The position numbers were made by a program, and so were the translations under genes. Below, piece by piece: positions 35,743-48,817 of a DNA stretch of 50,370 nucleotides. The first letter of the stretch is position 1; each line of letters starts with the position of its first letter. Below the pieces are notes generated by a model, which saw only the letters and a list, made by a program, of their open reading frames with translations, made no database searches and was not told the origin of the DNA. Source of the DNA: Elusimicrobiota bacterium (GTDB lineage: Bacteria > Elusimicrobiota > Elusimicrobia > UBA1565 > UBA9628); contig DAHVNA010000014.1 of NCBI GenBank assembly GCA_027319565.1, positions 1 to 50,370 on the forward strand. Direction: 5' to 3'.

Positions 35743-35774
35743 TTGACTCGATACCTAGGTATAGGGTTTATACT
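35743..35774 (+). promoter_or_regulatory. MerR-type promoter/operator
   Basis: TTGACT-20 bp-TATACT with perfect palindrome ATACCTAGGTAT (35751-35762) in the elongated spacer. Confidence 0.88.
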
Positions 35775-35790
35775 ACTTAGAGAGGACAAA

Positions 35791-36231
35791 ATGAAATCAA
35801 ACCTGACCATCGGACAAGCCGCGAAAAAAGCCGGCGTCAATATCCAAACCCTGCGCTATTACGAAGGGCGCGGCCTATTGCCGGCCGAGGCGCGCACGGA
35901 GGCGGGATATCGCCTCTATAGCGAGGAATCGGTTCAAAGACTGCGGTTTATCAAAAACGCCCAAGAGCTGGGATTTCCCCTCTCTGAAATCGCGCGCCTT
36001 CTCAAACTCCGGGTCAAGCGCCCCAATCAGTGCGAGAAGGTCAGAAAAGAGGTCGAAGCCCGCCTAGAAGTCGTCAAAGATAAAATCCTGGGCCTGCGCT
36101 CAATTGAGAAAACCTTGGAAAGTCTCAGGCAAGCCTGCAAGACGAGAAAGATCAGCTCCGATTGCCCAATTTTAGAAAGCCTCGACAACTCAAAAATAAA
36201 AGGAGAAAAACATGGAAAACAAAAACAATGA
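35791..36231 (+). CDS. merR: Hg(II)-responsive MerR regulator
   Basis: LTIGQAAK..GVNIQTLRYYE HTH; three Cys (NQCE, QACK, DCPILESL); ATG at 35791 after GAGGA. Confidence 0.88.
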   Translation: MKSNLTIGQAAKKAGVNIQTLRYYEGRGLLPAEARTEAGYRLYSEESVQRLRFIKNAQELGFPLSEIARLLKLRVKRPNQCEKVRKEVEARLEVVKDKILGLRSIEKTLESLRQACKTRKISSDCPILESLDNSKIKGEKHGKQKQ

Positions 36232-36859
36232 AAAATGGACGGGCGCCGCCGCGCTTTTGTCGGCGGCCCTGGCCTCGGTCTGCTGCATTGGGCCACTCAT
36301 CGCCATCACCCTGGGACTCACCAGCCTTGGCTTTGCGGCCAAACTGGTTCGCTATCGGCCTTACTTTCTGGGGCTAACCGCCACGGCCTTGGCCTTCGGG
36401 TTTTACCGAGCCTACCGCCAACGCCCGGTTGAGTGCGAGGACGGAAGCTGCAAAATGAGTTCCGGAAGCCGGACGATGAAGACGAGTCTGTGGATCGTCG
36501 CCGTTTTCGCCCTCGCCTTGGCGACTTTTCCCAAATGGTCAACCTGTCTGCTGGAGAAATGCGCCTTTGCGGGGAAAGTGAATGCGGCGGCATCCATCCC
36601 CGCCGGCGCCCAAGCCCTCAATCTTAAAATCGCGGGAATGGACTGCGAGGACTGCACCTTAATGATCAAAAAGAACATCGAAAAAATCCACGGGGTTTAT
36701 TTTGCCGACATCAATTTTGACGCGGGAACGGCCCTGGTCAAAACCAACGGAAAAGTGAACGCTCAAGACATTATCAGAGCCGTGGCAAAATCAGGATATA
36801 AGGCCGAAATTTTTTCAGCAAACTTATCTACAAAAGGAGAATCCAATGAAAGAAAATAA
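36212..36859 (+). CDS. merT: MerT-type mercury transporter fused to C-terminal HMA (MerP-like) domain
   Basis: SVCCIGP, YRPYF, CEDGSC; C-terminal GMDCEDC. Confidence 0.88.
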   Translation: MENKNNEKWTGAAALLSAALASVCCIGPLIAITLGLTSLGFAAKLVRYRPYFLGLTATALAFGFYRAYRQRPVECEDGSCKMSSGSRTMKTSLWIVAVFALALATFPKWSTCLLEKCAFAGKVNAAASIPAGAQALNLKIAGMDCEDCTLMIKKNIEKIHGVYFADINFDAGTALVKTNGKVNAQDIIRAVAKSGYKAEIFSANLSTKGESNERK

Positions 36860-38297
36860 CGGAAGCGAAAACGGTCAATTTTGGGACGGCAAAACGGAAT
36901 TTGACCTCGCCGTCATCGGTGGCGGCTCGGGAGCGTTTGCCGCAGCCATCAAAGGCTCGGAACTTGGCGCCAAGGTGGCTATTATTGAGGAAGGCGTCAT
37001 TGGAGGAACCTGCCTTAACCGCGGATGCGTGCCCTCCAAGCATCTCATACGAGCGGCCGAGATTTATCATCTGGCCGAATCAAACCCCTTTCCCGGGTTT
37101 TCGCTCAAGCGCTCTTCTCTTGATTTCGCGAGCCTCATTAAAAAGAAAGATAGTCTTCTCGATTGGGCTCGAAACGCCAAATACTGGGATATTCTCCGCC
37201 ATCATAAAAACATCAGCTTTATCCCGCGGAGGGCGAAGCTCAAATCGCCCAACACAATTGACGCCAGCGGAACCGAAATTCACGCGCGCAAAATCATCGT
37301 CGCGACGGGTTCTTCCGCCTTTATTCCGCCCATTGAAGGCTTAAACAATGTCTCCTATCTCACCAGCACGGAGGCGTTAAATCTTAAAAAACTGCCAAAA
37401 TCCATGATCGTCTTGGGCGCCAACGCGGTGGGGCTGGAACTCGCGCAAATGTTTTCGCGCTTTGGAGTGAACGTCTCCATTCATGAAATCATGGGGCGCG
37501 TGGCTCCCTTGGAAGAGCCGGAAATATCCAAAGCCCTTGAGAAATATTTGAAAGAAGAGGACATCGGCATTTGCACTTGTTCCAAGATAGTCGCGGCAAA
37601 ACAGAAGGGAGAAAAAATCGTCATCATCTCGGAAATGCCAAACGACGCAAAAAAAGAATTTTCTGCCGAGGCTCTGATTGTAGCGACTGGACGGCGGCCC
37701 AATACCCGGGAAATGGGTCTTGAGGCCATTGGAGTGGCCATGGACCCGCGAGGATACATCAAAACCGATGATCTGATGCGAACATCGGTTGACGGCGTCT
37801 TTGCCGCCGGCGATTGCGTCGGGCCCTATCAATTCGTCTATACCGCCGCCTATCAAGGCGCGGTGGCGGCTCAAAACGCTCTTGAAGACTGCTGCGAGCG
37901 AAAGATTAATTACGATGTCGTTCCCTACGCGATCTTCACCGATCCGGAACTCGCCTCGGTGGGTCTTAAAGAAGAACAGGCCAAGGCGCGCGGCCTCAAG
38001 GTCCGAACCAGCGTTCTTGATTTTCACTGGATTCCACGGGCCGAGGTGATGCTCAACGAACGCGGACTCATTAAGATCGTCGCCGAAGAGAAAAGCCTTA
38101 AACTCTTGGGCGTCCATATTCTCGGGGCTCAGGCCGGCGACTTGATTCATGAGGCGGTCATGGCCTTGAAATTCGGCGCCACGGCAAAAGACTTGACTGA
38201 CACGCTGCACGTCTATCCGACTTTATCCGAGGCCCTCAAAATTTGCGCTCAGGGATTCTTTAAAGACGCGACGAAACTTTCCTGCTGCGCGGAATGA
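36846..38297 (+). CDS. merA: Mercuric reductase lacking an N-terminal NmerA domain
   Basis: GGTCLNRGCVPSK, KYWD, FVYTAA, YPTLSE, C-terminal LSCCAE. Confidence 0.93.
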   Translation: MKENNGSENGQFWDGKTEFDLAVIGGGSGAFAAAIKGSELGAKVAIIEEGVIGGTCLNRGCVPSKHLIRAAEIYHLAESNPFPGFSLKRSSLDFASLIKKKDSLLDWARNAKYWDILRHHKNISFIPRRAKLKSPNTIDASGTEIHARKIIVATGSSAFIPPIEGLNNVSYLTSTEALNLKKLPKSMIVLGANAVGLELAQMFSRFGVNVSIHEIMGRVAPLEEPEISKALEKYLKEEDIGICTCSKIVAAKQKGEKIVIISEMPNDAKKEFSAEALIVATGRRPNTREMGLEAIGVAMDPRGYIKTDDLMRTSVDGVFAAGDCVGPYQFVYTAAYQGAVAAQNALEDCCERKINYDVVPYAIFTDPELASVGLKEEQAKARGLKVRTSVLDFHWIPRAEVMLNERGLIKIVAEEKSLKLLGVHILGAQAGDLIHEAVMALKFGATAKDLTDTLHVYPTLSEALKICAQGFFKDATKLSCCAE

Positions 38298-38318
38298 AAA
38301 CGAAAGGAGGAAGGAAAA

Positions 38319-38597
38319 ATGGAAAAAAGAAAGGTTGAGATATTCACGGCGGGATGTTCTGTCTGCGAGGACGCGGTCAAAAAGGTCAACGCCGCTTCCT
38401 GCCCCAACTGCGAGGTCGTGGTCTACGACCTCAACAAGGGCTGCAAGACCGATGAATGCCGCAACAAAGCCGAAGAATACGGCATCACGAGGCTTCCGGC
38501 CATCGTCGTCAACGGCCAGTTGCTTGACTGCTGCCGCCAAGATGCGGTCAAAACAGACGAACTTGAAGCCGCAGGGATCGGCAGGAAGTGTTGCTAA
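38319..38597 (+). CDS. Cys-rich thioredoxin/glutaredoxin-like protein
   Basis: FTAGCSVC, LPAIVVNG; 10 Cys in 92 aa; GGAGG RBS. Confidence 0.8.
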   Translation: MEKRKVEIFTAGCSVCEDAVKKVNAASCPNCEVVVYDLNKGCKTDECRNKAEEYGITRLPAIVVNGQLLDCCRQDAVKTDELEAAGIGRKCC

Positions 38598-38657: not shown

Positions 38658-38686
38658 TGTAACATTTGAGGATCAGAACAGACTTA
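38658..38686 (+). promoter_or_regulatory. Candidate ECF sigma promoter, copy 1
   Basis: TGTAACATTT-N13-GACTTA, same spacing as the copies at 42198 and 47118. Confidence 0.78.
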
Positions 38687-38747: not shown

Positions 38748-39050
38748 ATGGACAAGAAAAAGAACAAAGCGTTGTTAAGCGCCGCGGTCGCGGGGCTGAT
38801 GGGAGCGGCGTTGATGGCGGTTCCGGCGGCGGCAAAAAAAGCGCCGAAGCTGGTTCACTGCTACGGCGTCAACAAATGCAAGGGGCACGCAAGCTGCATG
38901 GGCAAGGGACATATGTGCGCCGGCAAAAACAGCTGCAAGGGGCAGGGGTGGCTCGCCATGCCCGCGAAATCCTGCGAGAACATAGAAGGCGGCTCCCTTA
39001 AACCCGTCAAAAAAATGAGCATGCCGATGAAAAAGATGAGCGGACAATAG
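38748..39050 (+). CDS. Bufferin-type (BufA2-like) secreted Cys-rich RiPP precursor
   Basis: Sec signal peptide; HCYGVNKCKG...CAGKNSCKGQGW...C..GG (6 Cys); directly upstream of DUF692. Confidence 0.85.
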   Translation: MDKKKNKALLSAAVAGLMGAALMAVPAAAKKAPKLVHCYGVNKCKGHASCMGKGHMCAGKNSCKGQGWLAMPAKSCENIEGGSLKPVKKMSMPMKKMSGQ

Positions 39051-39055
39051 ACCTA

Positions 39056-39955
39056 ATGAATCAGGATAGGATCAAAACCAAAGCCCAGGCATTCCGCGAT
39101 AAAAAAATCGTTTGCGGCGTCGGAGTCGGCCTGCGCTCGGTTCATTACGATCATGTCCTGTCCCGACGCCCCGCCGTCCCTTGGTTTGAGGTGATTTCCG
39201 AGAACTATATGGGACTGCGGGGCGATCAAGGAGGAAGGCCGCTGGAAATTTTGGAAGAAGCGCGGCGAAATTATCCCATCGTTCTTCACGGGGTTTCACT
39301 CAACATCGGTTCGGCCGACCCGCTTGATAAAAATTATTTAAACGCCTTAAAACGCCTGGCCGACCGCATCGACTCTCCCCATGTCACCGATCATCTTTGT
39401 TGGACCGGAGTTAGGGGCCAAAACCTCCACGATCTATTGCCCTTGCCGTATACGGCGGAAGGCTTGAATTTAATTTCTTCTCGCGCCGCCCAGATTCAAG
39501 ATATTTTGGGACGGCCCTTCGCCTTGGAAAACCCGTCCACCTATCTGGCGTTTCGCCATTCCCAGATGCCGGAATGGGAGTTTTTAGCCGAGGCCGCTCG
39601 TCAAGCCGGCTGCGGCATTCTTTTAGACATTAACAATGTTTATGTCAGCGCGAAAAACCACGGCTTTGATCCCGTTGAATACCTGAGAAATATTCCCGCC
39701 GACAGGGTCATTCAAATGCATCTGGCTGGTTATTCTCATTGCGGCAATCTTTTGATTGACACCCACGATCATCCGGTGTCGGATCCCGTCTGGGAACTCT
39801 ACGGCGAGGCCGTGCGCCTGTTTGGCGATGTCCCGACATTGATTGAGTGGGACGACAAAATTCCGCCGTTTGGCGTCCTTGAAAAAGAGGCCGCGCGCGC
39901 CGAAAAAATAAGGAGGAAAATTCTTGGCAAGCGAGATTGCGCCGCCCTGGTCTAA
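39056..39955 (+). CDS. DUF692 multinuclear non-heme iron oxidase (MNIO, BufB-like)
   Basis: GVGLR..H, EVISENY, HGVSL, DHLCW, LENPSTY, LLDINNVYV..KNH, HLAG, DTHDH, LIEWD. Confidence 0.93.
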   Translation: MNQDRIKTKAQAFRDKKIVCGVGVGLRSVHYDHVLSRRPAVPWFEVISENYMGLRGDQGGRPLEILEEARRNYPIVLHGVSLNIGSADPLDKNYLNALKRLADRIDSPHVTDHLCWTGVRGQNLHDLLPLPYTAEGLNLISSRAAQIQDILGRPFALENPSTYLAFRHSQMPEWEFLAEAARQAGCGILLDINNVYVSAKNHGFDPVEYLRNIPADRVIQMHLAGYSHCGNLLIDTHDHPVSDPVWELYGEAVRLFGDVPTLIEWDDKIPPFGVLEKEAARAEKIRRKILGKRDCAALV

Positions 39956-40757
39956 ACTACAGGAAAGCCTGCAAAAGATTCTAACCGACTCTGGAGGCGT
40001 CAACAACGCTTTGTCGAATCCATCGGTTCAATTTCTGCCTCATTTTCTCGCTGAAACCTCCGCGGTTTCGGCGCGGGAACGCCTCGGCGTTTATTGCGAC
40101 GCTTATTTCCTGCGCATACTCGAATCATTGGGTTCTGACTTCCCAACGCTTAAAGAGTTCTTAGGCGATAAAAATTTTCGCCATCTGATCGCGGATTATC
40201 TCAAGGACCACCCCTCCCGCTTTAAAAATATTTCCCTTATCGGCGAGCGCTTGCCGAAATTTGTATCCCGGCATCCTCTCAATAGAAAGTTTGGCTTCCT
40301 CGCCGATTTATCCCGATTGGAATGGGAAGTTCTCTCGTGCCTTTATCGCGACAGGCTTTCCCCCTTAAACCTAGAGTCGCTGCGCCAAATTCCGGAAAAA
40401 TCCTGGCCGAAGGCGAGATTTATTCTTGACCCCAGCGTACGATTTATTGAACTCGATTGGGACGTCGATCGTCTGTGGAATGAACGAATGCTGGCGAGAG
40501 CCAAAAAGAGAAGCCTCAAAATTAAAAAAAGCGAGCGTTCTCTTTTGATTGTCCGCGATCATCAATGGGTCCAGGTTCGGGCTCTTGGGCTTGAGGAATC
40601 TACGGCCCTCAAGAGACTCCGCGGCGGCGCTTCTTTGGGAAATCTCTGCGATTTCCTCGAGAATTCCCGCAAGTTCCAGGTCAAGCCCGGCGCTATCCAA
40701 GTCTGGATTCGCGATTGGATTTCCTCGGGAGTTCTAAAGCGGTTAGTTTTTCCATAG
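39924..40757 (+). CDS. DUF2063 MNIO partner protein (BufC-like)
   Basis: RLGVY..AY..R....L..DFP....LG...F......Y...HP, LADL.RLEW. Confidence 0.85.
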   Translation: MASEIAPPWSKLQESLQKILTDSGGVNNALSNPSVQFLPHFLAETSAVSARERLGVYCDAYFLRILESLGSDFPTLKEFLGDKNFRHLIADYLKDHPSRFKNISLIGERLPKFVSRHPLNRKFGFLADLSRLEWEVLSCLYRDRLSPLNLESLRQIPEKSWPKARFILDPSVRFIELDWDVDRLWNERMLARAKKRSLKIKKSERSLLIVRDHQWVQVRALGLEESTALKRLRGGASLGNLCDFLENSRKFQVKPGAIQVWIRDWISSGVLKRLVFP

Positions 40758-40857: not shown

Positions 40858-41361
40858 TCACACAACCGACGCTTTCACGGCTTCCAGGAATTTTTCGTCG
40901 CTGACGGCGGAAAGGTGATGTTTGAAGGTAGCCCCGCCTTTTTTGTCCAAGATCAACACGTTGTACATGGGGCAGGCGCCGCCCGGATGAGCCAAGCCCA
41001 AGGTTTTTCCCAGCCAGTCCGCAGGGTCTGAGAGCAAAGGAAAATCAAAACGATGATCCCTCAAAACCCGCTCCGGAGCGCTTTGGTCCGCGCCCAAGGT
41101 TGAAATCGCCAACACCTCGAGATGTTCGCGGTTCGATTGATAAATATTCTGCAAAAAACCGATCCTTTCCTGACAAGTAGAACACAGATTGGTAAACCAT
41201 AAGACGACGGATTTCTGAAGAAAATAAGAGGACAAGGTGTAAGGCCGCCCTTTTAAGTCGCGCAAGGTAAAGTCTGGAATGGCCTCTCCAAGTTTGACGC
41301 CTTGATAGGGATGAAACAAAAACCTCGCGCGAATAAAAGTTTTCCAAAAAAGTTTTTTCAT
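40858..41361 (-). CDS. Redoxin/AhpC-TSA (TlpA-like) protein
   Basis: PDFTL.DL.G, CSTC, FPLLSD, ILDK.G; third Cys in GACP. Confidence 0.8.
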   Translation of the reverse strand: MKKLFWKTFIRARFLFHPYQGVKLGEAIPDFTLRDLKGRPYTLSSYFLQKSVVLWFTNLCSTCQERIGFLQNIYQSNREHLEVLAISTLGADQSAPERVLRDHRFDFPLLSDPADWLGKTLGLAHPGGACPMYNVLILDKKGGATFKHHLSAVSDEKFLEAVKASVV

Positions 41362-41609
41362 TTCGGTTTGAGATGTTCCAGAATACGACGCTTGGCGGCT
41401 TTAACTACGCGCGGGTCAAGCTGGGGCCGAGCTATTTCTTCTACCGTTTTAGAAATCATCTCTAATTGCCGCGAAAAGCGCCGGCAATGCTCGCATAACA
41501 TCAAATGCAGGCGCAAAAGCCCGCGCTGAAGTAAGGGCGCATTGAAAAGTTCTCCGACAAGAACTTTCTCGGACACCTCCCGACAAGACGGCATCAGGCG
41601 TTTAATCAT
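41358..41609 (-). CDS. Soluble zinc-binding anti-sigma factor (zf-HC2/ZAS)
   Basis: SCRE...LRLHLMLCEHCRRF (C...HxxxCxxC); no TM; overlaps the sigma gene. Confidence 0.88.
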   Translation of the reverse strand: MIKRLMPSCREVSEKVLVGELFNAPLLQRGLLRLHLMLCEHCRRFSRQLEMISKTVEEIARPQLDPRVVKAAKRRILEHLKPK

Positions 41610-42192
41610 GTTTCCCGCTTTCCCATTTCTTTTCCAGGCACTCCCGCAGCTTGATGCGGGCTCTGTAGAGAAGCACCCGTAAATTGGTATAGGAAACGCC
41701 CAAAATGTTACAGATATCCTCGGAGGACTCTCCCTCCGATTCCCGAAGGAAAAACGCCGTTTTTTGGCTTAAGGTCAAGCCCTCGGCACATTGCGCGATC
41801 AATTCCTTGATCTCTCCGGTCAAGACGCTTTCCTCTGGGCCCAAGGGAGGGCGAGACCACAGGCCGCTCTCGTTAAAACGCTTTTCAAAGTCATCTTGAA
41901 TTTTGTCAAGGCTTTCCTCGCGATAGCTTTTTCGGCGGAAATCCGCAGCCTTATTATAAAGGATTCCGACAAGATAGGTCTTAATTTGGGATCGCCCTTC
42001 AAAGCGATCAAGCGCACTTAAGAAGGCCGCGAAGGTTTCCTGTGCGAGTTCCTCGGCGTCGGCTTGGGAAAACCCCATGGCAAAACTCACGGCCAAAAGC
42101 GTCTGAGTATGGGAGTTGACCAATTCTGCCATCGCGCCGTCCCGGCCCTCCTTGAGAGCCCGGATATCGTCTTTAGAGATATCGGTTGGCAT
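41602..42192 (-). CDS. ECF sigma factor (TIGR02943-like)
   Basis: AEELAQETF, FEGRS..KTYL.GIL.NK, F..SG.W, IC.ILG....N..VLLYRAR..LRECLE..W. Confidence 0.9.
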   Translation of the reverse strand: MPTDISKDDIRALKEGRDGAMAELVNSHTQTLLAVSFAMGFSQADAEELAQETFAAFLSALDRFEGRSQIKTYLVGILYNKAADFRRKSYREESLDKIQDDFEKRFNESGLWSRPPLGPEESVLTGEIKELIAQCAEGLTLSQKTAFFLRESEGESSEDICNILGVSYTNLRVLLYRARIKLRECLEKKWESGKHD

Positions 42193-42197
42193 AGGGT

Positions 42198-42226
42198 TGT
42201 AACATTTTACAAATTTGTCCGACTTA
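42198..42226 (+). promoter_or_regulatory. Candidate ECF sigma promoter, copy 2
   Basis: TGTAACATTT-N13-GACTTA in the 45-bp divergent gap between the sigma and PiT genes. Confidence 0.78.
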
Positions 42227-42237
42227 CTTGTGTGACC

Positions 42238-43224
42238 ATGGACTTGACCACGCTTCTAGGAATAACTGGCGCGGCAGCTCTCGCTTTCGTCAACGGCGCC
42301 AACGATATATCAAAGTCCATCGCCACCTTGGTCGGAAGCGGTGAGTCAAGTTACAAGAGGGCCGTGATCCTTGTCGCCCTGAGTACTGCCGCGGGAGCGA
42401 TCCTCGCTTCCGCCTGGGCCGTCAAGATGACTCTCCTTTTCACCAGAGGAATGCTGTCTCCGCATATTAAAATCAACGAAATTTTCGCCTTAGCGGTTCT
42501 CGCCGGAGCCATTCTCTGGATTCTGATGGCGACGAAAATCGGACTTCCAGTCTCTACCACTCACGCCATCGTAGGCAGCGTCATTTTGACTGGCGTCTAC
42601 GCCTTTGGCTTTCGCAACGTCTTCTGGTCAAGTCTAACGCGAAATGTGGTCCTGCCGCTCCTTGTTTCCCCCATCGCCGCTTTTGTCGCGGCCCGTTTGA
42701 TCTTTCAGGGATTGTTTTGGCTCTGCCGCAAAAAATATTGTCTCAACTGTCACTGGGCGCATTGGATGAGCGCGATGTCAAGCGGCTTCGCGCGTGGGCT
42801 CAACGATACTCCAAAAATCGCCGCCTTCGGGTTTATCTTCTACTATATCCTCGACCCTCAAACTCATATCGCGCCAAAGTGGTTTTTTCTGATTCTAGCC
42901 ACCGCAATGGCCTCGGGAGCAATCGCCATGGGTCTACAGGTGACGAAAACACTCGCCGAGAAGATTACACAAATGGACCATCTGGAAGGTTTTGCCGCCA
43001 ATCTCGCGACCTCCATGTTGGTCATCATAGGTGCAATCGCAGGTTGGCCTATGTCGACAACTCATGTCGCCAGCGGCGGCATCATGGGAATCGGCCTCCG
43101 CAACGGAGAAAAGACCATCGATTGGAAAACGGTGGGCGAGATATTAGCGGCATGGGTCATTACATTGCCAGTCTCCGGGATGATGGGCATGGCGGCTTAT
43201 TGGGCTTTTAAAAAATTAAAATAA
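42238..43224 (+). CDS. PiT-family (PHO4) oxyanion transporter
   Basis: NGAND, PVSTTHA, GLND..K, PMSTTH; real start ATG 42238 (the track's upstream extension overlaps the sigma gene). Confidence 0.88.
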   Translation: MDLTTLLGITGAAALAFVNGANDISKSIATLVGSGESSYKRAVILVALSTAAGAILASAWAVKMTLLFTRGMLSPHIKINEIFALAVLAGAILWILMATKIGLPVSTTHAIVGSVILTGVYAFGFRNVFWSSLTRNVVLPLLVSPIAAFVAARLIFQGLFWLCRKKYCLNCHWAHWMSAMSSGFARGLNDTPKIAAFGFIFYYILDPQTHIAPKWFFLILATAMASGAIAMGLQVTKTLAEKITQMDHLEGFAANLATSMLVIIGAIAGWPMSTTHVASGGIMGIGLRNGEKTIDWKTVGEILAAWVITLPVSGMMGMAAYWAFKKLK

Positions 43225-43243: not shown

Positions 43244-45769
43244 ATGGAAACACAACTCATTGAAATCAAAGCCGACACGATTTTTTACAAGCCAGAGCTT
43301 CACTGCTGGCAAAAAGACGGGCTTTATTTCGCCCTTGACCCTGATTCTCCAAACTGGGTCTCGACCGATGAGCGAGGGAAAAATATTTTGGATCTTATCG
43401 ATGGGAAAAATCCAGTCTCTGAAATTTTAAGGCTTTACTCCCAAAAAACCGGCTTGGACTATGGAAAAACCTGGCGGGACATCCACTCTTTTTTGCGCGA
43501 AGCCGAAAGAAAAGAAATTATTTCCCCAAAGCCCTTCAATCGCCCCCCTTATGAAGGACGCGCACGACATTTAAAGATGGGAAAATTGAAAGAGTTTTGG
43601 ATACATCTTCTTCAAACCTGCAATCTGTCCTGTTCTCATTGCCTGGTTTCCTCCGACCCCCACGGCGAGAAAGGAGAGAGCAAAGACTTTTATTTAAAAG
43701 CGATTGACGAAGCTTTCGATCTCGGAGTCAGGCGCTTCTATTTCACGGGAGGAGAACCCTTTATTTATGATGGGATATTCGATCTCATCAGCCACATCGT
43801 TGAAGCAAAGAAGGCGGAACTCATTGTCCTAACCAACGCGACCCTGCTTCAGGGAGAAAGACTGCGGAAAATCGAGAAATTTGACCCTAATCTTCTTAAA
43901 TTCCAGGTCAGCCTGGATGGGACGACTTCGGAAATCAACGACCCCATTCGCGGCGCGGGCGTATTCAAAAAAGCCTCGAAGGGACTTCTCAACTTAAGCC
44001 GCCTGGGATTTGAAGCCTCTTTAACTGCAGTTGTCACCAAATCCAATATCGAAGACCTTAAAAATTTACCAAAAATCGCCAAGGAGCTGGGGGCAAAATC
44101 CGTCCATCTCATGTGGCTCCACAAACGCGGCCGCATTCTCAACTCGGACGAAAACGGAAATCCGCCATCGAATACGGAACTCCTCGATCTCACACGACAC
44201 GTAAGAAGCGCGGCCAAAGAATACGGGATTGTCTTTGACAACTTTGAGTCTATTTTAAGCCGCATCAACGGCAAGGCGGGGGTTAAATACGATTTGGGAA
44301 ATCTCTGCTGGGAAAGTTTGTGCCTCTATCGTGACGGCGGCGTCTACCCATCGGCCGCGACAGCGGGAATTTCCACCCTGGAGTTAGGAAACGCGAAATC
44401 ATCCCGGCTTGCCGCACTGTGGGAAAAAAGTTCCGTGGCCCAATTATTCCGCGAAACAAGCGTCATTCAAAAAAGATCTCTTTTAAATCATCCTTTCCGC
44501 TTTTTAAGCGGCGGCGGAGACATGGAGCACTCATACTTTTTCAGTTCCAATGGAACGGAAGGCTCGATTTTAGCGGATGACCCTTATCATGAGCTCTACG
44601 TTGATATGATTAAAGACGCGATAGCGGAGCTTGCCCTGCGCGCCCAAAAATCCCAGAACATGAAGTCGGGATTTAATCCCCCCACCATTTATCACGCAAT
44701 GGGAGACGGCGGAATTTCCTGCAGCGAGGACGCCCAAGATTGGCTCATCGGACATGAAGTAAAACCAACGCGATTTCTCCACACCAATTGCGTTCTTTCC
44801 TTCGATGTGGAAAAACCCTACCGCATAGTCCAAAAATTTTATGGACAAGCGGCCACTGAACCGCAAAAAGAGCTCTGTTGCCCGGTCAAATACGACGAAG
44901 CCGAGGTCGGCCATATTCCCAAAGATGTCTTGGATCGCTTCTACGGCTGCGGTTCTCCTATCTCTGAGGCGCAAATCACCCCGGGAGAAACGATCCTCGA
45001 CCTCGGTTCAGGAGCCGGCATAGACTGCTTTATCGCCGCTAAAAAAACCGGCCCCAAGGGACGAGTGATTGGAGTCGACATGACCAGCGAAATGCTGGCC
45101 GTCGCCCGCAGATGCCAAAAAGACGTCGCCTCAGCCTTGGGTTATGATGTCGTCGATTTCAAGGAAGGATTTCTTGAAAAAATTCCCACAAAAGATAAAA
45201 GCGTGGATATTGTGACATCCAACTGCGTCATCAATCTCTCGCCGGATAAAGCAAAGGTCTTTTCGGAAATTTGGCGCATCTTGAAAGACAACGGGCGGAT
45301 GGTCGTCGCCGATATCGTATCTGAAAATCCCGTGCCCCTCAACCTCCAAGCGCACAAAGACCTATGGGGAGAATGCATCTCGGGTTCTCTGTCCGAGGCG
45401 GAGTTTCTAGCGGGACTTGAACGAGCGGGATTTTATGGAATTCGCGTCCTAAAAAAAACCTTTTGGAAGGAAGTGGAAGGCTATCCCTTCTATTCGATTA
45501 CCGTCAGAGGTTTTAAATACGAAAAGAAATCCGCCTGTTCTTTTATCGGCCAAAAGGCTGTCTATTGGGGCCCGTATAAGGCGGTCATCGACGAAGAAGG
45601 GCATCTTTTCCCTCGCGGAGAATTAGTGGAGGTCTGCACCGACACGACATCCAAGCTCGCGACGCCGCCTTATGCCGGAGATTTTAGCGTCATCAAATCT
45701 AGCGAATCCCTTGAAAAACCGTCCGTTCCCGAAGGCGCTTGTTGCAGCCCGGAAAAAGCTTGCTGCTAA
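43244..45769 (+). CDS. Fusion: PqqD/RRE-like + radical SAM + degenerate SPASM-like + ArsM-like methyltransferase
   Basis: CNLSCSHC, FTGGEP, QVSLDG; LDLGSGAG.D; ArsM Cys motifs CCP, YGCG, SNCVINL, WGEC; terminal CC..CC. Confidence 0.82.
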   Translation: METQLIEIKADTIFYKPELHCWQKDGLYFALDPDSPNWVSTDERGKNILDLIDGKNPVSEILRLYSQKTGLDYGKTWRDIHSFLREAERKEIISPKPFNRPPYEGRARHLKMGKLKEFWIHLLQTCNLSCSHCLVSSDPHGEKGESKDFYLKAIDEAFDLGVRRFYFTGGEPFIYDGIFDLISHIVEAKKAELIVLTNATLLQGERLRKIEKFDPNLLKFQVSLDGTTSEINDPIRGAGVFKKASKGLLNLSRLGFEASLTAVVTKSNIEDLKNLPKIAKELGAKSVHLMWLHKRGRILNSDENGNPPSNTELLDLTRHVRSAAKEYGIVFDNFESILSRINGKAGVKYDLGNLCWESLCLYRDGGVYPSAATAGISTLELGNAKSSRLAALWEKSSVAQLFRETSVIQKRSLLNHPFRFLSGGGDMEHSYFFSSNGTEGSILADDPYHELYVDMIKDAIAELALRAQKSQNMKSGFNPPTIYHAMGDGGISCSEDAQDWLIGHEVKPTRFLHTNCVLSFDVEKPYRIVQKFYGQAATEPQKELCCPVKYDEAEVGHIPKDVLDRFYGCGSPISEAQITPGETILDLGSGAGIDCFIAAKKTGPKGRVIGVDMTSEMLAVARRCQKDVASALGYDVVDFKEGFLEKIPTKDKSVDIVTSNCVINLSPDKAKVFSEIWRILKDNGRMVVADIVSENPVPLNLQAHKDLWGECISGSLSEAEFLAGLERAGFYGIRVLKKTFWKEVEGYPFYSITVRGFKYEKKSACSFIGQKAVYWGPYKAVIDEEGHLFPRGELVEVCTDTTSKLATPPYAGDFSVIKSSESLEKPSVPEGACCSPEKACC

Positions 45770-45778
45770 TGCCCCAAC

Positions 45779-46462
45779 ATGAAATTTTCCATCGTCATTC
45801 CGACCTTCAACGAAGAAAAGTCCATTGCAAAGACTCTTTCTCTATTGAGGAGTCAGGCCCAGGAAAGCGAATTAGAAATAATCGTAGTCGATGCGCATAG
45901 TTCTGACAGAACGGTGGAGCTGGCTGAGAAACTCGCGGATCAAACGATTTTCTCGCCTCCGGGCCGCGCCATTCAAATGCACAAAGGAGCCCTCGCCGCT
46001 TCGGGAGAATTACTCGTTTTTCTCCATGCCGACACGCGCCTGCCGGCGTCTTGGGTCCACGCCGCCTTAAAGGCTTTCGCTGTTCTTCCAAGGCCTGCGG
46101 CCTTGGCGTTTCGACTTCGCTTTGACAGAGACGAGTTTGTTTACCGCTTTATCGCCCAGGCCTCTTATTGGAGAAGTCTATTGACCGGAGTCCCCCTCGG
46201 CGATCAAGCCCTCATCATTTCAAAGGAATTGTATTTTCGGAGCGGAGGGTTTCCGCCAGTCCCCATCTTCGAGGAATATTTTTTGATAAAAAATCTCAAG
46301 AGCCTGGGAAGAGTTCAAATTCTGGAAGATTCGGTCACGACATCCTCGCGGAGATACGAGAAAAATGGCCCGCTTTCCAACGCGTTGAAAAATTCCTGGA
46401 TCACTTTTTTGTTTTATCTTGGGATTTCGCCTTCCGTTTTGGCGCGGATGTATAAGCCCTAA
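45779..46462 (+). CDS. GT2 glycosyltransferase (TIGR04283-like, arsenosugar-cluster associated)
   Basis: SIVIPTFNEE, GRA.QM..GA, FLHADT, GDQAL, GGFP, TSSRRY. Confidence 0.85.
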   Translation: MKFSIVIPTFNEEKSIAKTLSLLRSQAQESELEIIVVDAHSSDRTVELAEKLADQTIFSPPGRAIQMHKGALAASGELLVFLHADTRLPASWVHAALKAFAVLPRPAALAFRLRFDRDEFVYRFIAQASYWRSLLTGVPLGDQALIISKELYFRSGGFPPVPIFEEYFLIKNLKSLGRVQILEDSVTTSSRRYEKNGPLSNALKNSWITFLFYLGISPSVLARMYKP

Positions 46463-47122
46463 ATGAACGCCCTCATTGTTTTCGTTAAGGATCCAATCCC
46501 GGGCAAGGTCAAGACGCGGCTTTGCCCTCCGTTCTCATATGATCAGGCCGCGAGCCTTTACAAATCTTTCGCCGAAGACGTCCTCGAATCGGCTCTCCAA
46601 GTGAGAAATGCGAACATTTTCGCCGCTTACGCCGGCGAAAAATCTCCGCCCAGTTTATTAGAGAAGCGCCCAAAAATTAGCTCGTTTAGACAGGAGGGCC
46701 CCGATCTCGGATTCAAACTCATTAACGCCTTTAAAACCGCGTTTGCCGAAAAAAACTCAAAGGCTGTCATTATCGGATCGGACGCCCCGCAGATCTCCCC
46801 GCGAATTGCCGAAGAGGCCTTTGAGGCGCTTGAGATTGCCGACATGGTTTTAGGGCCAGCCGAGGACGGCGGATATTATCTTATAGCGCTCAAAAGAATC
46901 ATCCCTGAACTGTTCTTTGAAATTCCCTGGTCCACAGAAAAAGTTTTGAGCGAAACTCTGTCTCGCGCCCAAAACCTCGGCCTCAAAATCAAACTCTTGC
47001 CGACGCTCTTTGACATAGACAATTATGACAATCTCCAAAAACTAATCAAGACTCTTGAGTCTCTGCCGAAAACCAGCTGCCCCGCCACCCGAAAAGCCCT
47101 GGCGGAATTTTCCCACCTGTAA
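46463..47122 (+). CDS. DUF2064/TIGR04282-like transferase
   Basis: FVK.P.PGKVKTRL, Q.G.DLG, IIGSD.P, LGPAEDGGYYLI, IPWST, DID. Confidence 0.87.
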   Translation: MNALIVFVKDPIPGKVKTRLCPPFSYDQAASLYKSFAEDVLESALQVRNANIFAAYAGEKSPPSLLEKRPKISSFRQEGPDLGFKLINAFKTAFAEKNSKAVIIGSDAPQISPRIAEEAFEALEIADMVLGPAEDGGYYLIALKRIIPELFFEIPWSTEKVLSETLSRAQNLGLKIKLLPTLFDIDNYDNLQKLIKTLESLPKTSCPATRKALAEFSHL

Positions 47123-47146
47123 CATTTCGCCGTTTAAGGCGACTCA
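47118..47146 (+). promoter_or_regulatory. Candidate ECF sigma promoter, copy 3
   Basis: TGTAACATTT-N13-GACTCA, overlapping the upstream TAA stop. Confidence 0.75.
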
Positions 47147-47190: not shown

Positions 47191-47322
47191 ATGGCTCTTA
47201 TGTGTCAGATGGGATCGTGCAAGGCAAAACAGGGGATGTGCGGCCACGAGAAAATGATGCTTCTGGCGGTCATGCTCATCTCAGCGGGAGCGGCGGGGCA
47301 TTGGCTATTGCATTTATTTTAG
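47191..47322 (+). CDS. Unlisted 43-aa Cys/Met/His-rich peptide with hydrophobic C-terminus
   Basis: AAGGAGGAG RBS; MALMCQMGSCKAKQGMCGHEKMMLLAVMLISAGAAGHWLLHLF*. Confidence 0.65.
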   Translation: MALMCQMGSCKAKQGMCGHEKMMLLAVMLISAGAAGHWLLHLF

Positions 47323-48122
47323 GCCTTGGTCTTGCGGCAAAACCAGCGCGGGCCGGAGTTGAAAGACTCTCCGGCCCGACGGCTTTGTGGAATCAAGTCC
47401 TTATGTCCTATGTCCACAACGCCCGGGTGGATTACGCGGATTTACAAGCCCATCCTGAAATATTGAATCAATACATAAAATCCTTAGCTATCAAGCCGCG
47501 TGAAAAACACGCCCAAGAAAATCTCGATACAAAAATCGCATTCTTAATCAACGCTTATAACGCCTTGACGATGAAGACGATTATCGATCATTATCCGATC
47601 CAATGGTCCTGGGCAGCGTCTCTTATTTATCCCAAAAATAGCATTCGCCAAATTCCGGGAGTTTGGGATCGCTTGAAATTTAACGTCATGGGCCAAGAAA
47701 TGACCTTACAGGAAATCGAAAATACCCTCCGGGGCCTTGGCGACCCGCGCATTCACATGGCGATTGTCTGCGCTTCCAAAGGCTGCCCGCCGTTGAGATC
47801 CGAGCCCTATCTCGGCAAAAAACTCAGCGCTCAACTTGACGATCAAACGCGCCGATTTTTGTCGAATCCAAAAAAATTCGCGATTGATAAAAAAGCTGGC
47901 GTCGTTTATCTTTCCCCCATTTTTAAATGGTTTGGAGGAGATTTTGCGTCCAAATTCGAGCCCGGAATTGGTTTTGAAGGGCAAAACGCGAATGTGCGCG
48001 CGGCGTTAAATTTCATCAGCGGCTATTTAAGCGTTGACGACGCTCTTTATCTGCGCGGCGGAGCCTACCAAGTTGAGTACCTCGCCTATGACTGGTCGCT
48101 CAATGAATGGAAAAAGCAATGA
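47301..48122 (+). CDS. Exported DUF547-domain protein
   Basis: VDY, AFLINAYNA, DPRIH.AIVCASKGCPPL, LSPIFKWF..DF, YDWSLN. Likely TTG start at 47301 giving a signal peptide; the track start is 47166. Confidence 0.85.
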   Translation: MAIAFILGLGLAAKPARAGVERLSGPTALWNQVLMSYVHNARVDYADLQAHPEILNQYIKSLAIKPREKHAQENLDTKIAFLINAYNALTMKTIIDHYPIQWSWAASLIYPKNSIRQIPGVWDRLKFNVMGQEMTLQEIENTLRGLGDPRIHMAIVCASKGCPPLRSEPYLGKKLSAQLDDQTRRFLSNPKKFAIDKKAGVVYLSPIFKWFGGDFASKFEPGIGFEGQNANVRAALNFISGYLSVDDALYLRGGAYQVEYLAYDWSLNEWKKQ

Positions 48123-48817
48123 AACATCTTAAAATTATTCTGACCGCCCTTTTGACCGCGGCTCTCATCATTTTCTCCCGGCATTTTAACGCGTCGGGAC
48201 TTTTAAAAGAGTCTCTGGAATCCATAAAAAATCTCGGTCCTTGGGCGCCGCTGATCTTTATCGCCCTTTATGTCGCGACCACGGTCCTGCTTATTCCCGG
48301 TTCCATTTTAACCTTGGGATCCGGAGTTCTCTTCGGCGTTTTTTGGGGAACCTTTTACGTCTCAATTGCCTCCACCATCGGCGCGATGGCGGCTTTCGCC
48401 CTTGGGAGAGGATTCGCCAGGGATTGGATTTCCCGAAAAATAAAATCAAATTCCTCTTTTAACGCCGTCTCTCAAGCGGCCGCCCGCGAAGGCTGGAAAA
48501 TCGTCGTTTTGACGCGCCTCTCGCCGATTTTCCCGTTTAACCTCCTCAATTACGCCTTCGGCCTTACTGACGTCTCTTTCCGCGACTATGTCTTCGCTTC
48601 CTGGATTGGGATGCTCCCGGGAACAATCCTTTATGTTTACATTGGTTCTTTAGCCGGAGATTTGGCGCGAGTTGGGATTTCCTCTGGGCATTCCCGCCCC
48701 CCGGTTGAATGGGCTTTTTATTCCGTCGGTCTTCTCGCGACCATCGCCGTTTCCATTTACATCGGCCGCATCGCAAAGGCCGCAATCGCCCAAAAAACCT
48801 CAAAGGAGGCGTTATGA
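48119..48817 (+). CDS. TVP38/TMEM64 (VTT, DedA superfamily) membrane protein
   Basis: PGSILTLG.G..FG, RLSPIFPFNLLNYAFGLT, GMLPGT; ATGA overlap with the DUF547 stop. Confidence 0.9.
   Translation: MKHLKIILTALLTAALIIFSRHFNASGLLKESLESIKNLGPWAPLIFIALYVATTVLLIPGSILTLGSGVLFGVFWGTFYVSIASTIGAMAAFALGRGFARDWISRKIKSNSSFNAVSQAAAREGWKIVVLTRLSPIFPFNLLNYAFGLTDVSFRDYVFASWIGMLPGTILYVYIGSLAGDLARVGISSGHSRPPVEWAFYSVGLLATIAVSIYIGRIAKAAIAQKTSKEAL

Follow-up and report, generated by a model that had tools for sequence, protein, structure and literature searches.

A single-chain RRE, radical SAM and ArsM fusion as a probable functional analogue of ArsM plus ArsS in an Elusimicrobiota bacterium

The window, i.e. the whole stretch of 50,370 nucleotides analysed from an Elusimicrobiota bacterium, encodes a fusion protein that is best explained as a single-chain functional analogue of ArsM plus ArsS on a RiPP-maturase scaffold, in which dimethylarsenite made by ArsM is offered to the adenosyl radical by a tethered arm (probability about 0.6). 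The fusion is probably an unstudied route to carbon-arsenic bonds, because a radical enzyme of the peptide-modifying type, joined to ArsM, stands in the usual place of ArsS. Only ArsM, ArsS and ArsL are described as SAM-using makers of carbon-arsenic bonds in the literature covered, and no paper on an RRE/radical SAM/ArsM fusion was found in the main texts searched, drawn largely from outside subscription journals, where a mention in a network figure or table may have been missed.

The fusion gene is followed by two genes whose "arsenosugar" role is a matter of NCBIfam naming, no paper testing that role having been found in the literature searched (Table 1). Among the 36 other family loci, each flanked by 2 kb or more, the PiT gene adjoins 19 and a sigma factor gene is present in 9; 11 of the 36 had no cassette gene and 18 no glycosyltransferase (GT) gene with the queries used.

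Table 1. Features of the fusion locus and segments of the encoded protein (positions in the window)
Feature	Coordinates	Strand	Remarks
Divergent ECF sigma factor and small anti-sigma	41358..42192	-	candidate operon regulator
ECF-type promoter-like motif TGTAAC-N16-CGACT	42198..42224	+	before the PiT-fusion operon
PiT/PHO4-family transporter	42238..43224	+	first gene of the operon
RRE / radical SAM / stripped SPASM / tethered arm / ArsM fusion (P0001)	43244..45769	+	841 aa
RRE (PqqD-like winged helix), residues 8-98	43265..43537	+	P36 and W38 before strand 3 in 119/121 rows
Radical-SAM core, residues 114-335	43583..44248	+	CxxxCxxC 126-133, GGEP 169-172
SPASM fold, residues 346-469	44279..44650	+	cluster cysteines mostly lost; fold match to CteB
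Internal pseudo-leader, residues 477-487, [FY]xxPx[ILVM]xxxMG	44672..44704	+	predicted pairing with RRE strand 3 and helix 3
Tethered arm, residues 488-520	44705..44803	+	C493, H513, C516; candidate As(III) carrier
ArsM/AS3MT-type methyltransferase and C-terminal domain, residues 522-820	44807..45703	+	C545/546, C569, C661, C711
CC..CC tail, low confidence	45740..45766	+	pLDDT <50 for 822-841
TIGR04283 glycosyltransferase	45779..46462	+	233.5 bits, cut-off 182; NCBIfam name "arsenosugar biosynthesis"
TIGR04282 / DUF2064 protein	46463..47122	+	192.3 bits, cut-off 134
Second copy of the promoter-like motif	47118..47144	+	
43-aa ORF	47191..47322	+	3 Cys; hydrophobic at 22-40; unconserved and not taken as a substrate
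DUF547 protein	47301..48122	+	start inferred
VTT/DedA membrane protein	48107..48817	+	
FAD disulfide oxidoreductase, PRK06370	48814..50334	+	779 bits, cut-off 620

A preliminary description had proposed a single-chain enzyme, and the gene is indeed one open reading frame; the sequence marks it listed were all located, namely ILDLIDGK..VSEI at residues 48-61, the CxxxCxxC at C126/C130/C133, the ArsM-like cysteines C545, C546, C569, C661 and C711, and the CC pairs of the tail at 833/834 and 840/841. The fusion is not an assembly artefact, since 118 of the best 120 among 1626 matches (49-99% identity for these 120) cover at least 96% of the query. The full-length model reached a pLDDT of 88.0 and a pTM of 0.88. 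The PqqD/RRE-like character of the N-terminus, whose absence would have refuted the preliminary description, was upheld by fold prediction and structure comparison: folded alone, the domain shows three strands followed by three helices (pLDDT 94.7), and its best structural matches are RREs, namely TbiB1 5v1u/5v1v (E 4.5e-4, TM 0.62-0.66), lasso B1 6jx3 (Z 10.6, rmsd 2.8, 84 aligned) as well as PqqD 5sxy (Z 9.8, rmsd 2.3, 91 aligned); Pfam PqqD matches residues 29-93 at 21.5 bits, slightly below the cut-off of 23.4.

The radical-SAM core carries the family motif H288-x-x-W291-x-H293-x-R-G, and model residues 17-467 align with CteB over 413 residues (Z 30.8, rmsd 4.1). This fold and that of the RRE are shared with the RRE-radical SAM-SPASM maturases CteB, TigE, SkfB and PqqE/PqqD, from which the fusion differs in its mostly lost SPASM cysteines, the lack of a conserved precursor gene, an RRE cleft occupied in cis according to the model, and the added C-terminal arm and ArsM. 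Where all 19 stand-alone relatives have cysteine (the nearest are 26-31% identical), the fusion has S370, D426, H449 and no CxxC, and only C355 and C360 are still present. The SPASM fold at about 346-469 and the conserved extension at 474-520 were absent from the earlier description. Searches of the ESM Atlas returned only generic radical SAM/SPASM clusters, and PADLOC just generic methyltransferase and viperin-core matches.

Both a class I methyltransferase fold and the AS3MT C-terminal domain were found in the ArsM half, which matches CrArsM, CmArsM and human AS3MT with E values from 4e-38 to 2e-34 (the best, 4e-38, to CrArsM/human AS3MT) and aligns with this group over 271 residues (Z 27.5, rmsd 6.9). 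C569, C661 and C711 align in the 4kw7 alignment with CmArsM C72, C174 and C224, equivalents of which are shared with CrArsM and human AS3MT and whose roles are treated in PMC6138428. In contrast to these enzymes, the methyltransferase of the window is fused behind a radical-SAM module and has a CC pair (C545/546) at the position of CmArsM C44, an assignment made by aligned range only. The four cysteine positions and the C-terminal domain are kept in 121/121 or nearly all rows. The ArsM half falls below every curated NCBIfam ArsM cut-off (PRK11873, 233.8-236.6 bits against 263, the higher value being that of the half alone; NF038099, 150.9 bits for the half alone against 400), as do the ArsMs beside true ArsS, which score lower still (193.6). 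The tail, CCSPEKACC, was considered as an ArsL-like site and rejected; it is an ArsM trait, since stand-alone ArsMs end in CC too.

Between the SPASM fold and ArsM lies the segment on which the proposed hand-over depends. A complex model of residues 1-470 with 474-525 scored 0.81 against 0.00 for the best of three controls, the pass mark being reached by 116/157 solved complexes and 2/215 mismatched pairs; as both partners come from a single chain and their alignment was paired, and as RRE-leader complexes have been solved, the pass may show likeness. The runs share at least 75% of contacts, with a partner pLDDT of at least 58. In this model residues 477-490 lie in the leader cleft of the RRE, with the lowest-error pairs between 38-41 and 482-486, and the following arm is threaded over the barrel; C493 and C516 are not among the confident contacts. 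The cleft between strand 3 and helix 3 is the leader site of RREs and YxxP a known RRE recognition motif, according to PMC12710340. The corresponding motif at 477-487, spotted after the complex model, occurs in 111/121 rows, F/YxxP being kept in only 16/43 rows of the wider family. The RRE cleft thus appears to be filled, as predicted by the model, by the enzyme's own chain, with no outside peptide. C516 is present in 41 of 43 family rows and absent from the 19 stand-alone relatives, and the arm forms the end of the protein in split forms.

That the enzyme replaces ArsS and channels methylarsenic, one of the two alternatives offered in the preliminary description, is supported by the gene slot, the genome profiles and the split and triple-fused forms. 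In a genome of the same taxonomic family (G243), ArsS (424.7 bits) and a separate ArsM occupy the slot of the fusion within the cassette seen in the window (MerR, MerTP, sigma factor, anti-sigma, Prx, PiT, both GTs, DUF547, VTT and oxidoreductase). As in ArsS and ArsM of the Synechocystis sp. PCC 6803 arsenosugar pathway, a radical SAM enzyme goes with ArsM, and the slot beside TIGR04283/TIGR04282, DUF547, VTT and oxidoreductase is common to both systems; unlike ArsS, the fusion has an RRE, a SPASM fold and the tethered arm, lacks DUF3641, and is one chain instead of two of about 340 aa. Among 301 genomes of the phylum, 11 encode the fusion, 11 encode ArsS and none both. Of the 25 with TIGR04283 over cut-off, including all 11 fusion genomes, 7 have ArsS, none both and 7 neither (Fisher p 0.008). 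TIGR04283 was found in 116 of 171 Nitrospirota genomes, and here the family occurs in 5 of 8 lacking ArsS versus 1 of 108 with it (p 2e-6, a value that treats kin as independent, three of the five holders without ArsS being near kin). Absolute exclusion is ruled out by three genomes (G301, G304 and G426) with both, of which G301 has two TIGR04283 copies and in G426 none was found.

Whether the replacement is "non-orthologous", as had been stated, has two answers. At the family level the term stands: the fusion scores 56.9 bits against TIGR04167 (ArsS; cut-off 300), over model positions 2-151 of 303; DUF3641 (PF12345) was not among the Pfam matches at E 0.1 and had none in the genome; and no ArsS locus over cut-off was detected in the source genome (91.65% complete). 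At the level of deep descent the trees conflict. Two quick trees on about 170 core columns, the first built after removal of eight duplicate, short or distant rows, placed ArsS, together with a small radical-SAM type of 296 aa, on the side of the fusion family. In constrained trees, setting ArsS next to the outgroup gave a higher likelihood, and these trees were not rejected (p-AU 0.63-0.66; a single long-branch row was left out).

The family itself shows several arrangements. In three Nitrospirota genomes a 490-aa radical-SAM half, which retains the full SPASM cysteine set, ends at the C516 motif and is directly followed by a TIGR04282-like gene, the separate 320-aa ArsM (54-55% identical) lying on the TIGR04283 contig. 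Shorter homologues considered as split genes were mostly contig-end fragments, and the split form rests on these other genomes. Reversed fusions with ArsM in front (P0291, P0292 and P0301), triple fusions with TIGR04283 (P0265, P0415 and P0416), and relatives with a different methyltransferase or TusA (P0253, P0262, P0266 and P0272) were also detected. By source names, the family is present in at least Elusimicrobiota, Nitrospirota, Planctomycetota, Acidobacteriota, Omnitrophota and Deltaproteobacteria; none of the 20 clusters looked up included a named cultured carrier.

Based on this evidence, a sequence of events can be proposed for the analogue of ArsM plus ArsS. Arsenic would enter, perhaps as arsenate through PiT, and be reduced, and the ArsM domain would methylate As(III) twice. 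Through thiol exchange, dimethylarsenite would then be handed from C545/546-C569 to C516/C493 in the mobile stretch next to them, while the RRE would clamp the enzyme's own 477-490 like a leader and so place the arm (C493, H513, C516) over the opening of the radical-SAM barrel. The 5'-deoxyadenosyl radical would add to arsenic and the electron of the arsenic radical would go back to the SAM cluster, as has been reported of ArsS, which PMC13598754 describes as redox-neutral; an auxiliary cluster would therefore not be needed, which would explain the SPASM decay. The adenosyl-arsenical (DDMAA) would go to TIGR04283/TIGR04282 and then to the downstream membrane and redox genes. A tentative extension, with the odds somewhat against it, is that a maturase swallowed its own precursor, a built-in YxxP-type leader sitting in the RRE and the "core" C493/C516 carrying methylarsenic from ArsM to the adenosyl radical, and that the auxiliary clusters decayed once the chemistry was redox-neutral.

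If true, this would be a third family of radical enzymes forming carbon-arsenic bonds, with a visible evolutionary path from peptide tailoring to small-molecule organometalloid chemistry and the split forms with intact SPASM as intermediates. Surveys based on ArsS would then overlook producers of the arsenosugar type, the fusion being as common as ArsS in this phylum sample, and with both active sites on a single chain the passing of toxic dimethylarsenite from one to the other could be tested directly. An RRE occupied in cis, as predicted, offers a concrete mechanism for the reuse of a maturase scaffold, and a warning that RRE-based RiPP mining can flag enzymes that have no precursor.

The reading that comes closest keeps the same arsenic pathway and assigns the enzyme another organoarsenical, by ArsL-like aminocarboxypropyl transfer, adenosylation of monomethylarsenite or a later arsenosugar step. 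ArsL and ArsM of arsinothricin are likewise a radical SAM enzyme paired with ArsM, and As(III) is bound in ArsL by C-terminal cysteines (10.1101/2024.02.01.577332), a likely site beyond the barrel as in the arm of the fusion. The three genomes in which the family stands beside ArsS, the differing barrel lining (H288, W291, D350), which could bind SAM differently, and a score of 221 bits for the ArsM half against the arsinothricin ArsM model (cut-off 500) speak for it, but an ArsM beside true ArsS also matches that model (157 bits), and the distribution is complementary to ArsS among TIGR04283 genomes. In addition, the fusion has no RCCLKC, its CC..CC tail belonging to the ArsM half, and the RCCLKC-tail model NF040542 did not report its locus, the sole match in the genome lying on another contig (25.5 bits, cut-off 450). 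This alternative is unlikely. It is rather improbable that the cassette serves a different thiophilic element or substrate (Se, Sb, Te, Hg or a thiol cofactor) within a metal-stress regulon, arsenic being incidental: the adjacent mer genes, the promoter motif common with the bufferin genes and near a heavy-metal motif, the relatives fused to TusA or other methyltransferases and the in-frame TGA of many ArsS genes fit this idea, against which stand the retention of the ArsM cysteines and AS3MT domain in all or nearly all rows and the presence of MerR beside just 2 of the 36 loci.

Two further readings take the maturase scaffold at face value. The arm could be a captured precursor modified once in cis, through a thioether link or an arsenic adduct, to yield a cofactor site or a released peptide. 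The model, which puts a leader-like segment into the RRE cleft and a stretch with cysteines over the barrel, would agree with this, as would the extended CteB fold, the SPASM cysteines of the split forms and the ability of SPASM enzymes to cross-link proteins described in PMC13692751; but in the fusion the arm lies inside the chain, the annotated neighbours include no conserved peptidase, the member in the window lacks auxiliary-cluster cysteines, and the swap with ArsS is left unexplained, which makes such self-modification very improbable. The other alternative of the preliminary description, a maturase with the 43-aa peptide or bufferin (BufA) as its substrate in trans, is not supported and now seems barely credible. 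It could call on the true RRE fold, the three units with a common promoter motif and the cysteines of both peptides. Against it, neither peptide was found in any of the 36 other family loci, even in a relaxed search, neither contains F/YxxP, and the model has the enzyme's own chain in the RRE cleft. The 43-aa ORF has one homologue (93% identity); BufA has its own BufB/BufC, which are required and sufficient for its modification according to PMC11626156, and bufABC occurs in three cassette loci that lack the fusion. Among 765 short intergenic ORFs from 41 loci, a survey that masked ORFs inside long open frames and could miss short divergent precursors there, recurrence in five loci was confined to the anti-sigma gene and the strand opposite it.

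The co-regulation that had been proposed for the fusion, the 43-aa peptide and bufferin did find support in sequence, an ECF-type promoter motif being common to the fusion operon, the 43-aa ORF unit and the bufferin genes and lying in front of all three. It closely resembles GTAACC-N16-CGAA, the heavy-metal sigma-F motif (PMC3511200), and points to a metal-stress sigma factor and not an arsenic-specific regulator. GTAAC matches within the sigma genes of two loci (L045 and L072) lie inside coding sequence and were left out of the motif count.

The fusion is a real protein, and all the features listed for it in the preliminary description are present in its translation. The best 120 of its 1626 matches are 49-99% identical to it and 118 of these cover at least 96% of the chain, indicating a conserved fusion; the nearest named records are from Elusimicrobia. 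Pfam matches were obtained for Radical_SAM (residues 124-274), Methyltransf_31 (579-717) and, at 21.5 bits against a cut-off of 23.4, PqqD (29-93). For the AlphaFold2 model (pLDDT 88.0, pTM 0.88), structural matches are CteB across residues 17-467 (Z 30.8, rmsd 4.1, 413 aligned) and, across residues 541-824, structures of ArsM. The PqqD/RRE-like character proposed for the N-terminus was borne out, as residues 1-100 folded alone best match lasso-peptide RREs and PqqD. The ArsM-like cysteines recognized earlier (C545, C546, C569, C661, and C711) occur in 121/121 rows; the last three align with CmArsM C72, C174, and C224, whose roles are described in the available part of the source (PMC6138428), and C545/546 falls near CmArsM C44 by aligned range only.

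Residues 346-469 keep a SPASM fold from which most ligands are gone: S370, D426, and H449 replace cysteines found in 19/19 stand-alone relatives and the CxxC is missing, so that the fusion differs from a complete SPASM maturase. Among 43 rows of the wider family, positions 370 (S 21, C 19) and 426 (D 24, C 18) vary, D350 and the DPY motif are kept, and H288 is retained in 42/43 vs 5/19 stand-alone relatives. The extension that follows (474-520, of which 488-520 form the arm) is also conserved in these rows (C493 35/43, H513 36/43, C516 41/43) and missing from the 19 stand-alone relatives, whose chains stop ahead of it. Block pLDDT falls to 58-73 over residues 491-550, the stretch bearing C493, C516, C545, and C546, as a mobile part might show.

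The adjacent GT genes score 233.5 bits for TIGR04283 (cut-off 182) and 192.3 for TIGR04282 (cut-off 134). Neighborhoods were tallied at 42 other family loci, 36 of them with at least 2 kb of flank (same-species L001 and duplicates excluded); these 36 held some cassette gene in 25 cases, a TIGR04282/04283-like gene in 18, PiT in 19 and ArsS (TIGR04167) in none. In G243, of the same family as the source genome, the same cassette is present but the place of the fusion is taken by an aquaporin-type channel, ArsS (424.7, cut-off 300) and a separate ArsM. Across 301 genomes of the phylum, fusion and ArsS over cut-off occur in 11 each with no overlap, and the 25 genomes with TIGR04283 over cut-off comprise 11 with fusion, 7 with ArsS and 7 with neither (Fisher p 0.008); the TIGR04283 gene adjoins the fusion in 6/11 and lies on another contig in 5/11. 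Within the "neither" group, one ArsS is cut by a contig end (G204), G267 and G271 hold a 296-aa radical-SAM type, and the other four showed none in the stretch fetched. In 171 Nitrospirota genomes (ArsS 113, TIGR04283 116, fusion family 7), the family is found in 5 of the 8 TIGR04283 genomes without ArsS, with the small radical-SAM type in 2 of the other 3, and in 1/108 with ArsS. In both samples p values overstate the significance, since related genomes do not count as independent.

In three near kin (G306, G316, G325) the radical half stands alone, with about 490 aa and a full SPASM cysteine set, its last residues being the C516 motif, HCSCVL(T/S)V; a TIGR04282-like gene follows directly (truncated at the contig edge in G325), and ArsM, with 320 aa and 54-55% identity, is encoded separately on the contig with TIGR04283. 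The split forms thus place the radical half itself in the ArsS slot and the joint of the fusion just after C516. As to the suggestion that the fusion replaces ArsS, slot and proposed role are supported by the G243 cassette, the genome profiles and the split radical half, whereas strict exclusion is contradicted by G301, G304, and G426, which hold both. Among the best 150 representatives, 49 of them scanned for domains, ArsM is fused behind the radical half or in front of it (P0291, P0292, P0301), and DUF5714 is frequently present as well. Radical SAM, ArsM and TIGR04283 come together in one cluster (P0265 and P0415, both truncated within the GT; P0416, truncated in front, its full GT scoring 239.5 bits). 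A few representatives have a different methyltransferase or TusA instead.

Because no precursor peptide recurs at family loci, docking of the extension was modeled. The complex of fusion residues 1-470 and 474-525 reached 0.81, against 0.00 for the best of three controls, and passed a mark attained by 116/157 solved complexes and 2/215 mismatched pairs; the two partners belong to a single chain and their alignment was paired, and since solved RRE-leader complexes exist the pass may reflect likeness. Runs share at least 75% of contacts, with partner pLDDT of at least 58. Predicted error is lowest for pairs between 38-41 (RRE strand 3) and 482-486, and helix 3 residues 78-90 also contact the partner; the strand 3/helix 3 cleft is the RRE leader site, and YxxP a recognition motif for lasso peptides, in the available part of PMC12710340. 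The interface further includes 506-515 and 517-519 of the arm and 288, 290, 341-358, 370, and 423-428 opposite; C493 and C516 are absent from its confident contacts. Strands at 38-41 and 482-485 appear in the independent model of the whole fusion. The motif [FY]xxPx[ILVM]xxxMG, spotted after the complex had been made, lies at 477-487 in 111/121 close rows (Y 41, F 70) and is retained in only 16/43 wider-family rows; its short form has 158 matches in these proteins, 112 at position 477.

The co-regulation proposed for the fusion operon, bufferin and 43-aa ORF is supported by TGTAAC-N16-CGACT, with three copies in the window at one mismatch or less (chance mean 0.17; 0/100 shuffles), two of them exact and the only exact ones in the genome. 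GTAAC precedes cassette genes in 9/17 upstream stretches inspected in relatives, and the motif resembles Caulobacter sigma-F GTAACC-N16-CGAA as given in the accessible part of PMC3511200. These ECF-type promoter-like motifs define a small regulon of three units: the bufferin genes, the operon of PiT and the fusion, and the genes for DUF547, VTT and the oxidoreductase. Being regulated together does not make a peptide a substrate, and the candidate substrate role of either peptide found no support: neither occurs at the 36 flanked family loci, and bufferin modification is reported to require BufB and BufC, which suffice for it (PMC11626156, available part). The 43-aa ORF has one homolog (93%), a hydrophobic stretch at 22-40 and no F/YxxP motif. 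BufA scores over the BufA2 model and adjoins BufB; bufABC occurs in three cassette loci without fusion, and with it elsewhere only in the same species. A peptide substrate in trans is very improbable.

In the accessible parts of the sources, ArsS forms DDMAA through addition of the adenosyl radical to DMA(III), and the arsenic radical re-reduces the cluster (PMC13598754; 10.64898/2026.04.29.721666); ArsM is its partner in Synechocystis (PMC8552651; PMC12159101). We consider that the fusion, although not ArsS, works like ArsS plus ArsM as an arsenic relay (probability about 0.6): the ArsM domain would form DMA(III), a thiol relay would pass it to the anchored arm, and the adenosyl radical would add to the arm-borne arsenic, the product going to the GT genes. 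Were this reaction redox-neutral, auxiliary clusters would be dispensable, which fits the SPASM ligand loss. ArsL holds As(III) by C-terminal cysteines (10.1101/2024.02.01.577332), and the fusion is not ArsL either. A product other than DDMAA is the likeliest of the alternatives, though itself unlikely. That the element is not arsenic seems rather improbable. Self-modification of the arm, whose preceding segment is predicted to dock on the RRE of the same chain, appears slightly less probable still. PiT may serve arsenate uptake; acr3 lies elsewhere in the source genome. In the literature searched, with most subscription journals and supplements outside it, no publication on the fusion was found.

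Features of the window and of related loci
Feature	Location	Description
Fusion gene	window 43244-45769	one 841-aa protein
Operon order		PiT, fusion, TIGR04283, TIGR04282, then 43-aa ORF, DUF547, VTT, PRK06370 oxidoreductase
bufA2-bufB-bufC cluster	window 38748-40757	no DoxX gene before converging peroxiredoxin-like gene; BufA tail Met/Lys-rich
TGTAAC-N16-CGACT	window 38658-38684, 42198-42224, 47118-47144	before bufA, before PiT, before 43-aa ORF
mer genes	window 35743-38597	merR, merT-HMA fusion, merA (527.8 bits, cut-off 454), small thioredoxin-like gene ending CC; upstream of bufferin genes
~296-aa radical-SAM type	L072:7000-7890, L040:11171-12061, L039:3914-4807, L132; G312:C297, G360:C45	
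Same radical module, other partners	P0272; P0253, P0262, P0266; P0251 and relatives	tandem TusA domains; different methyltransferase; DUF5714 behind ArsM
ArsS over cut-off	L051 (G296:C123:9304-10206)	end of 2942-aa open frame; giant fusion or long upstream frame
Partial bufC-like fragment	L001:17058-17240	second copy, directly after oxidoreductase in near-identical locus; suggests local duplication/rearrangement

The ~296-aa type, with a short Cys-rich end and above no NCBIfam cut-off, also occupies the ArsS slot beside ArsM and GT genes; there are two sub-types, and the stretch fetched around one of them includes an MFS transporter and a 343-aa Cys-bearing protein, with ArsM absent from it. 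Many ArsS genes of the Nitrospirota sample contain a single in-frame TGA, consistent with the selenoprotein label of that family; the window's fusion has none. The record of G304 (L017) is titled Bifidobacteriaceae with a 5.2-Mb genome, possibly a mixed bin. Further radical-SAM gene clusters occur in the source genome on contigs C78 (eight), C42 (three) and C32 (two).
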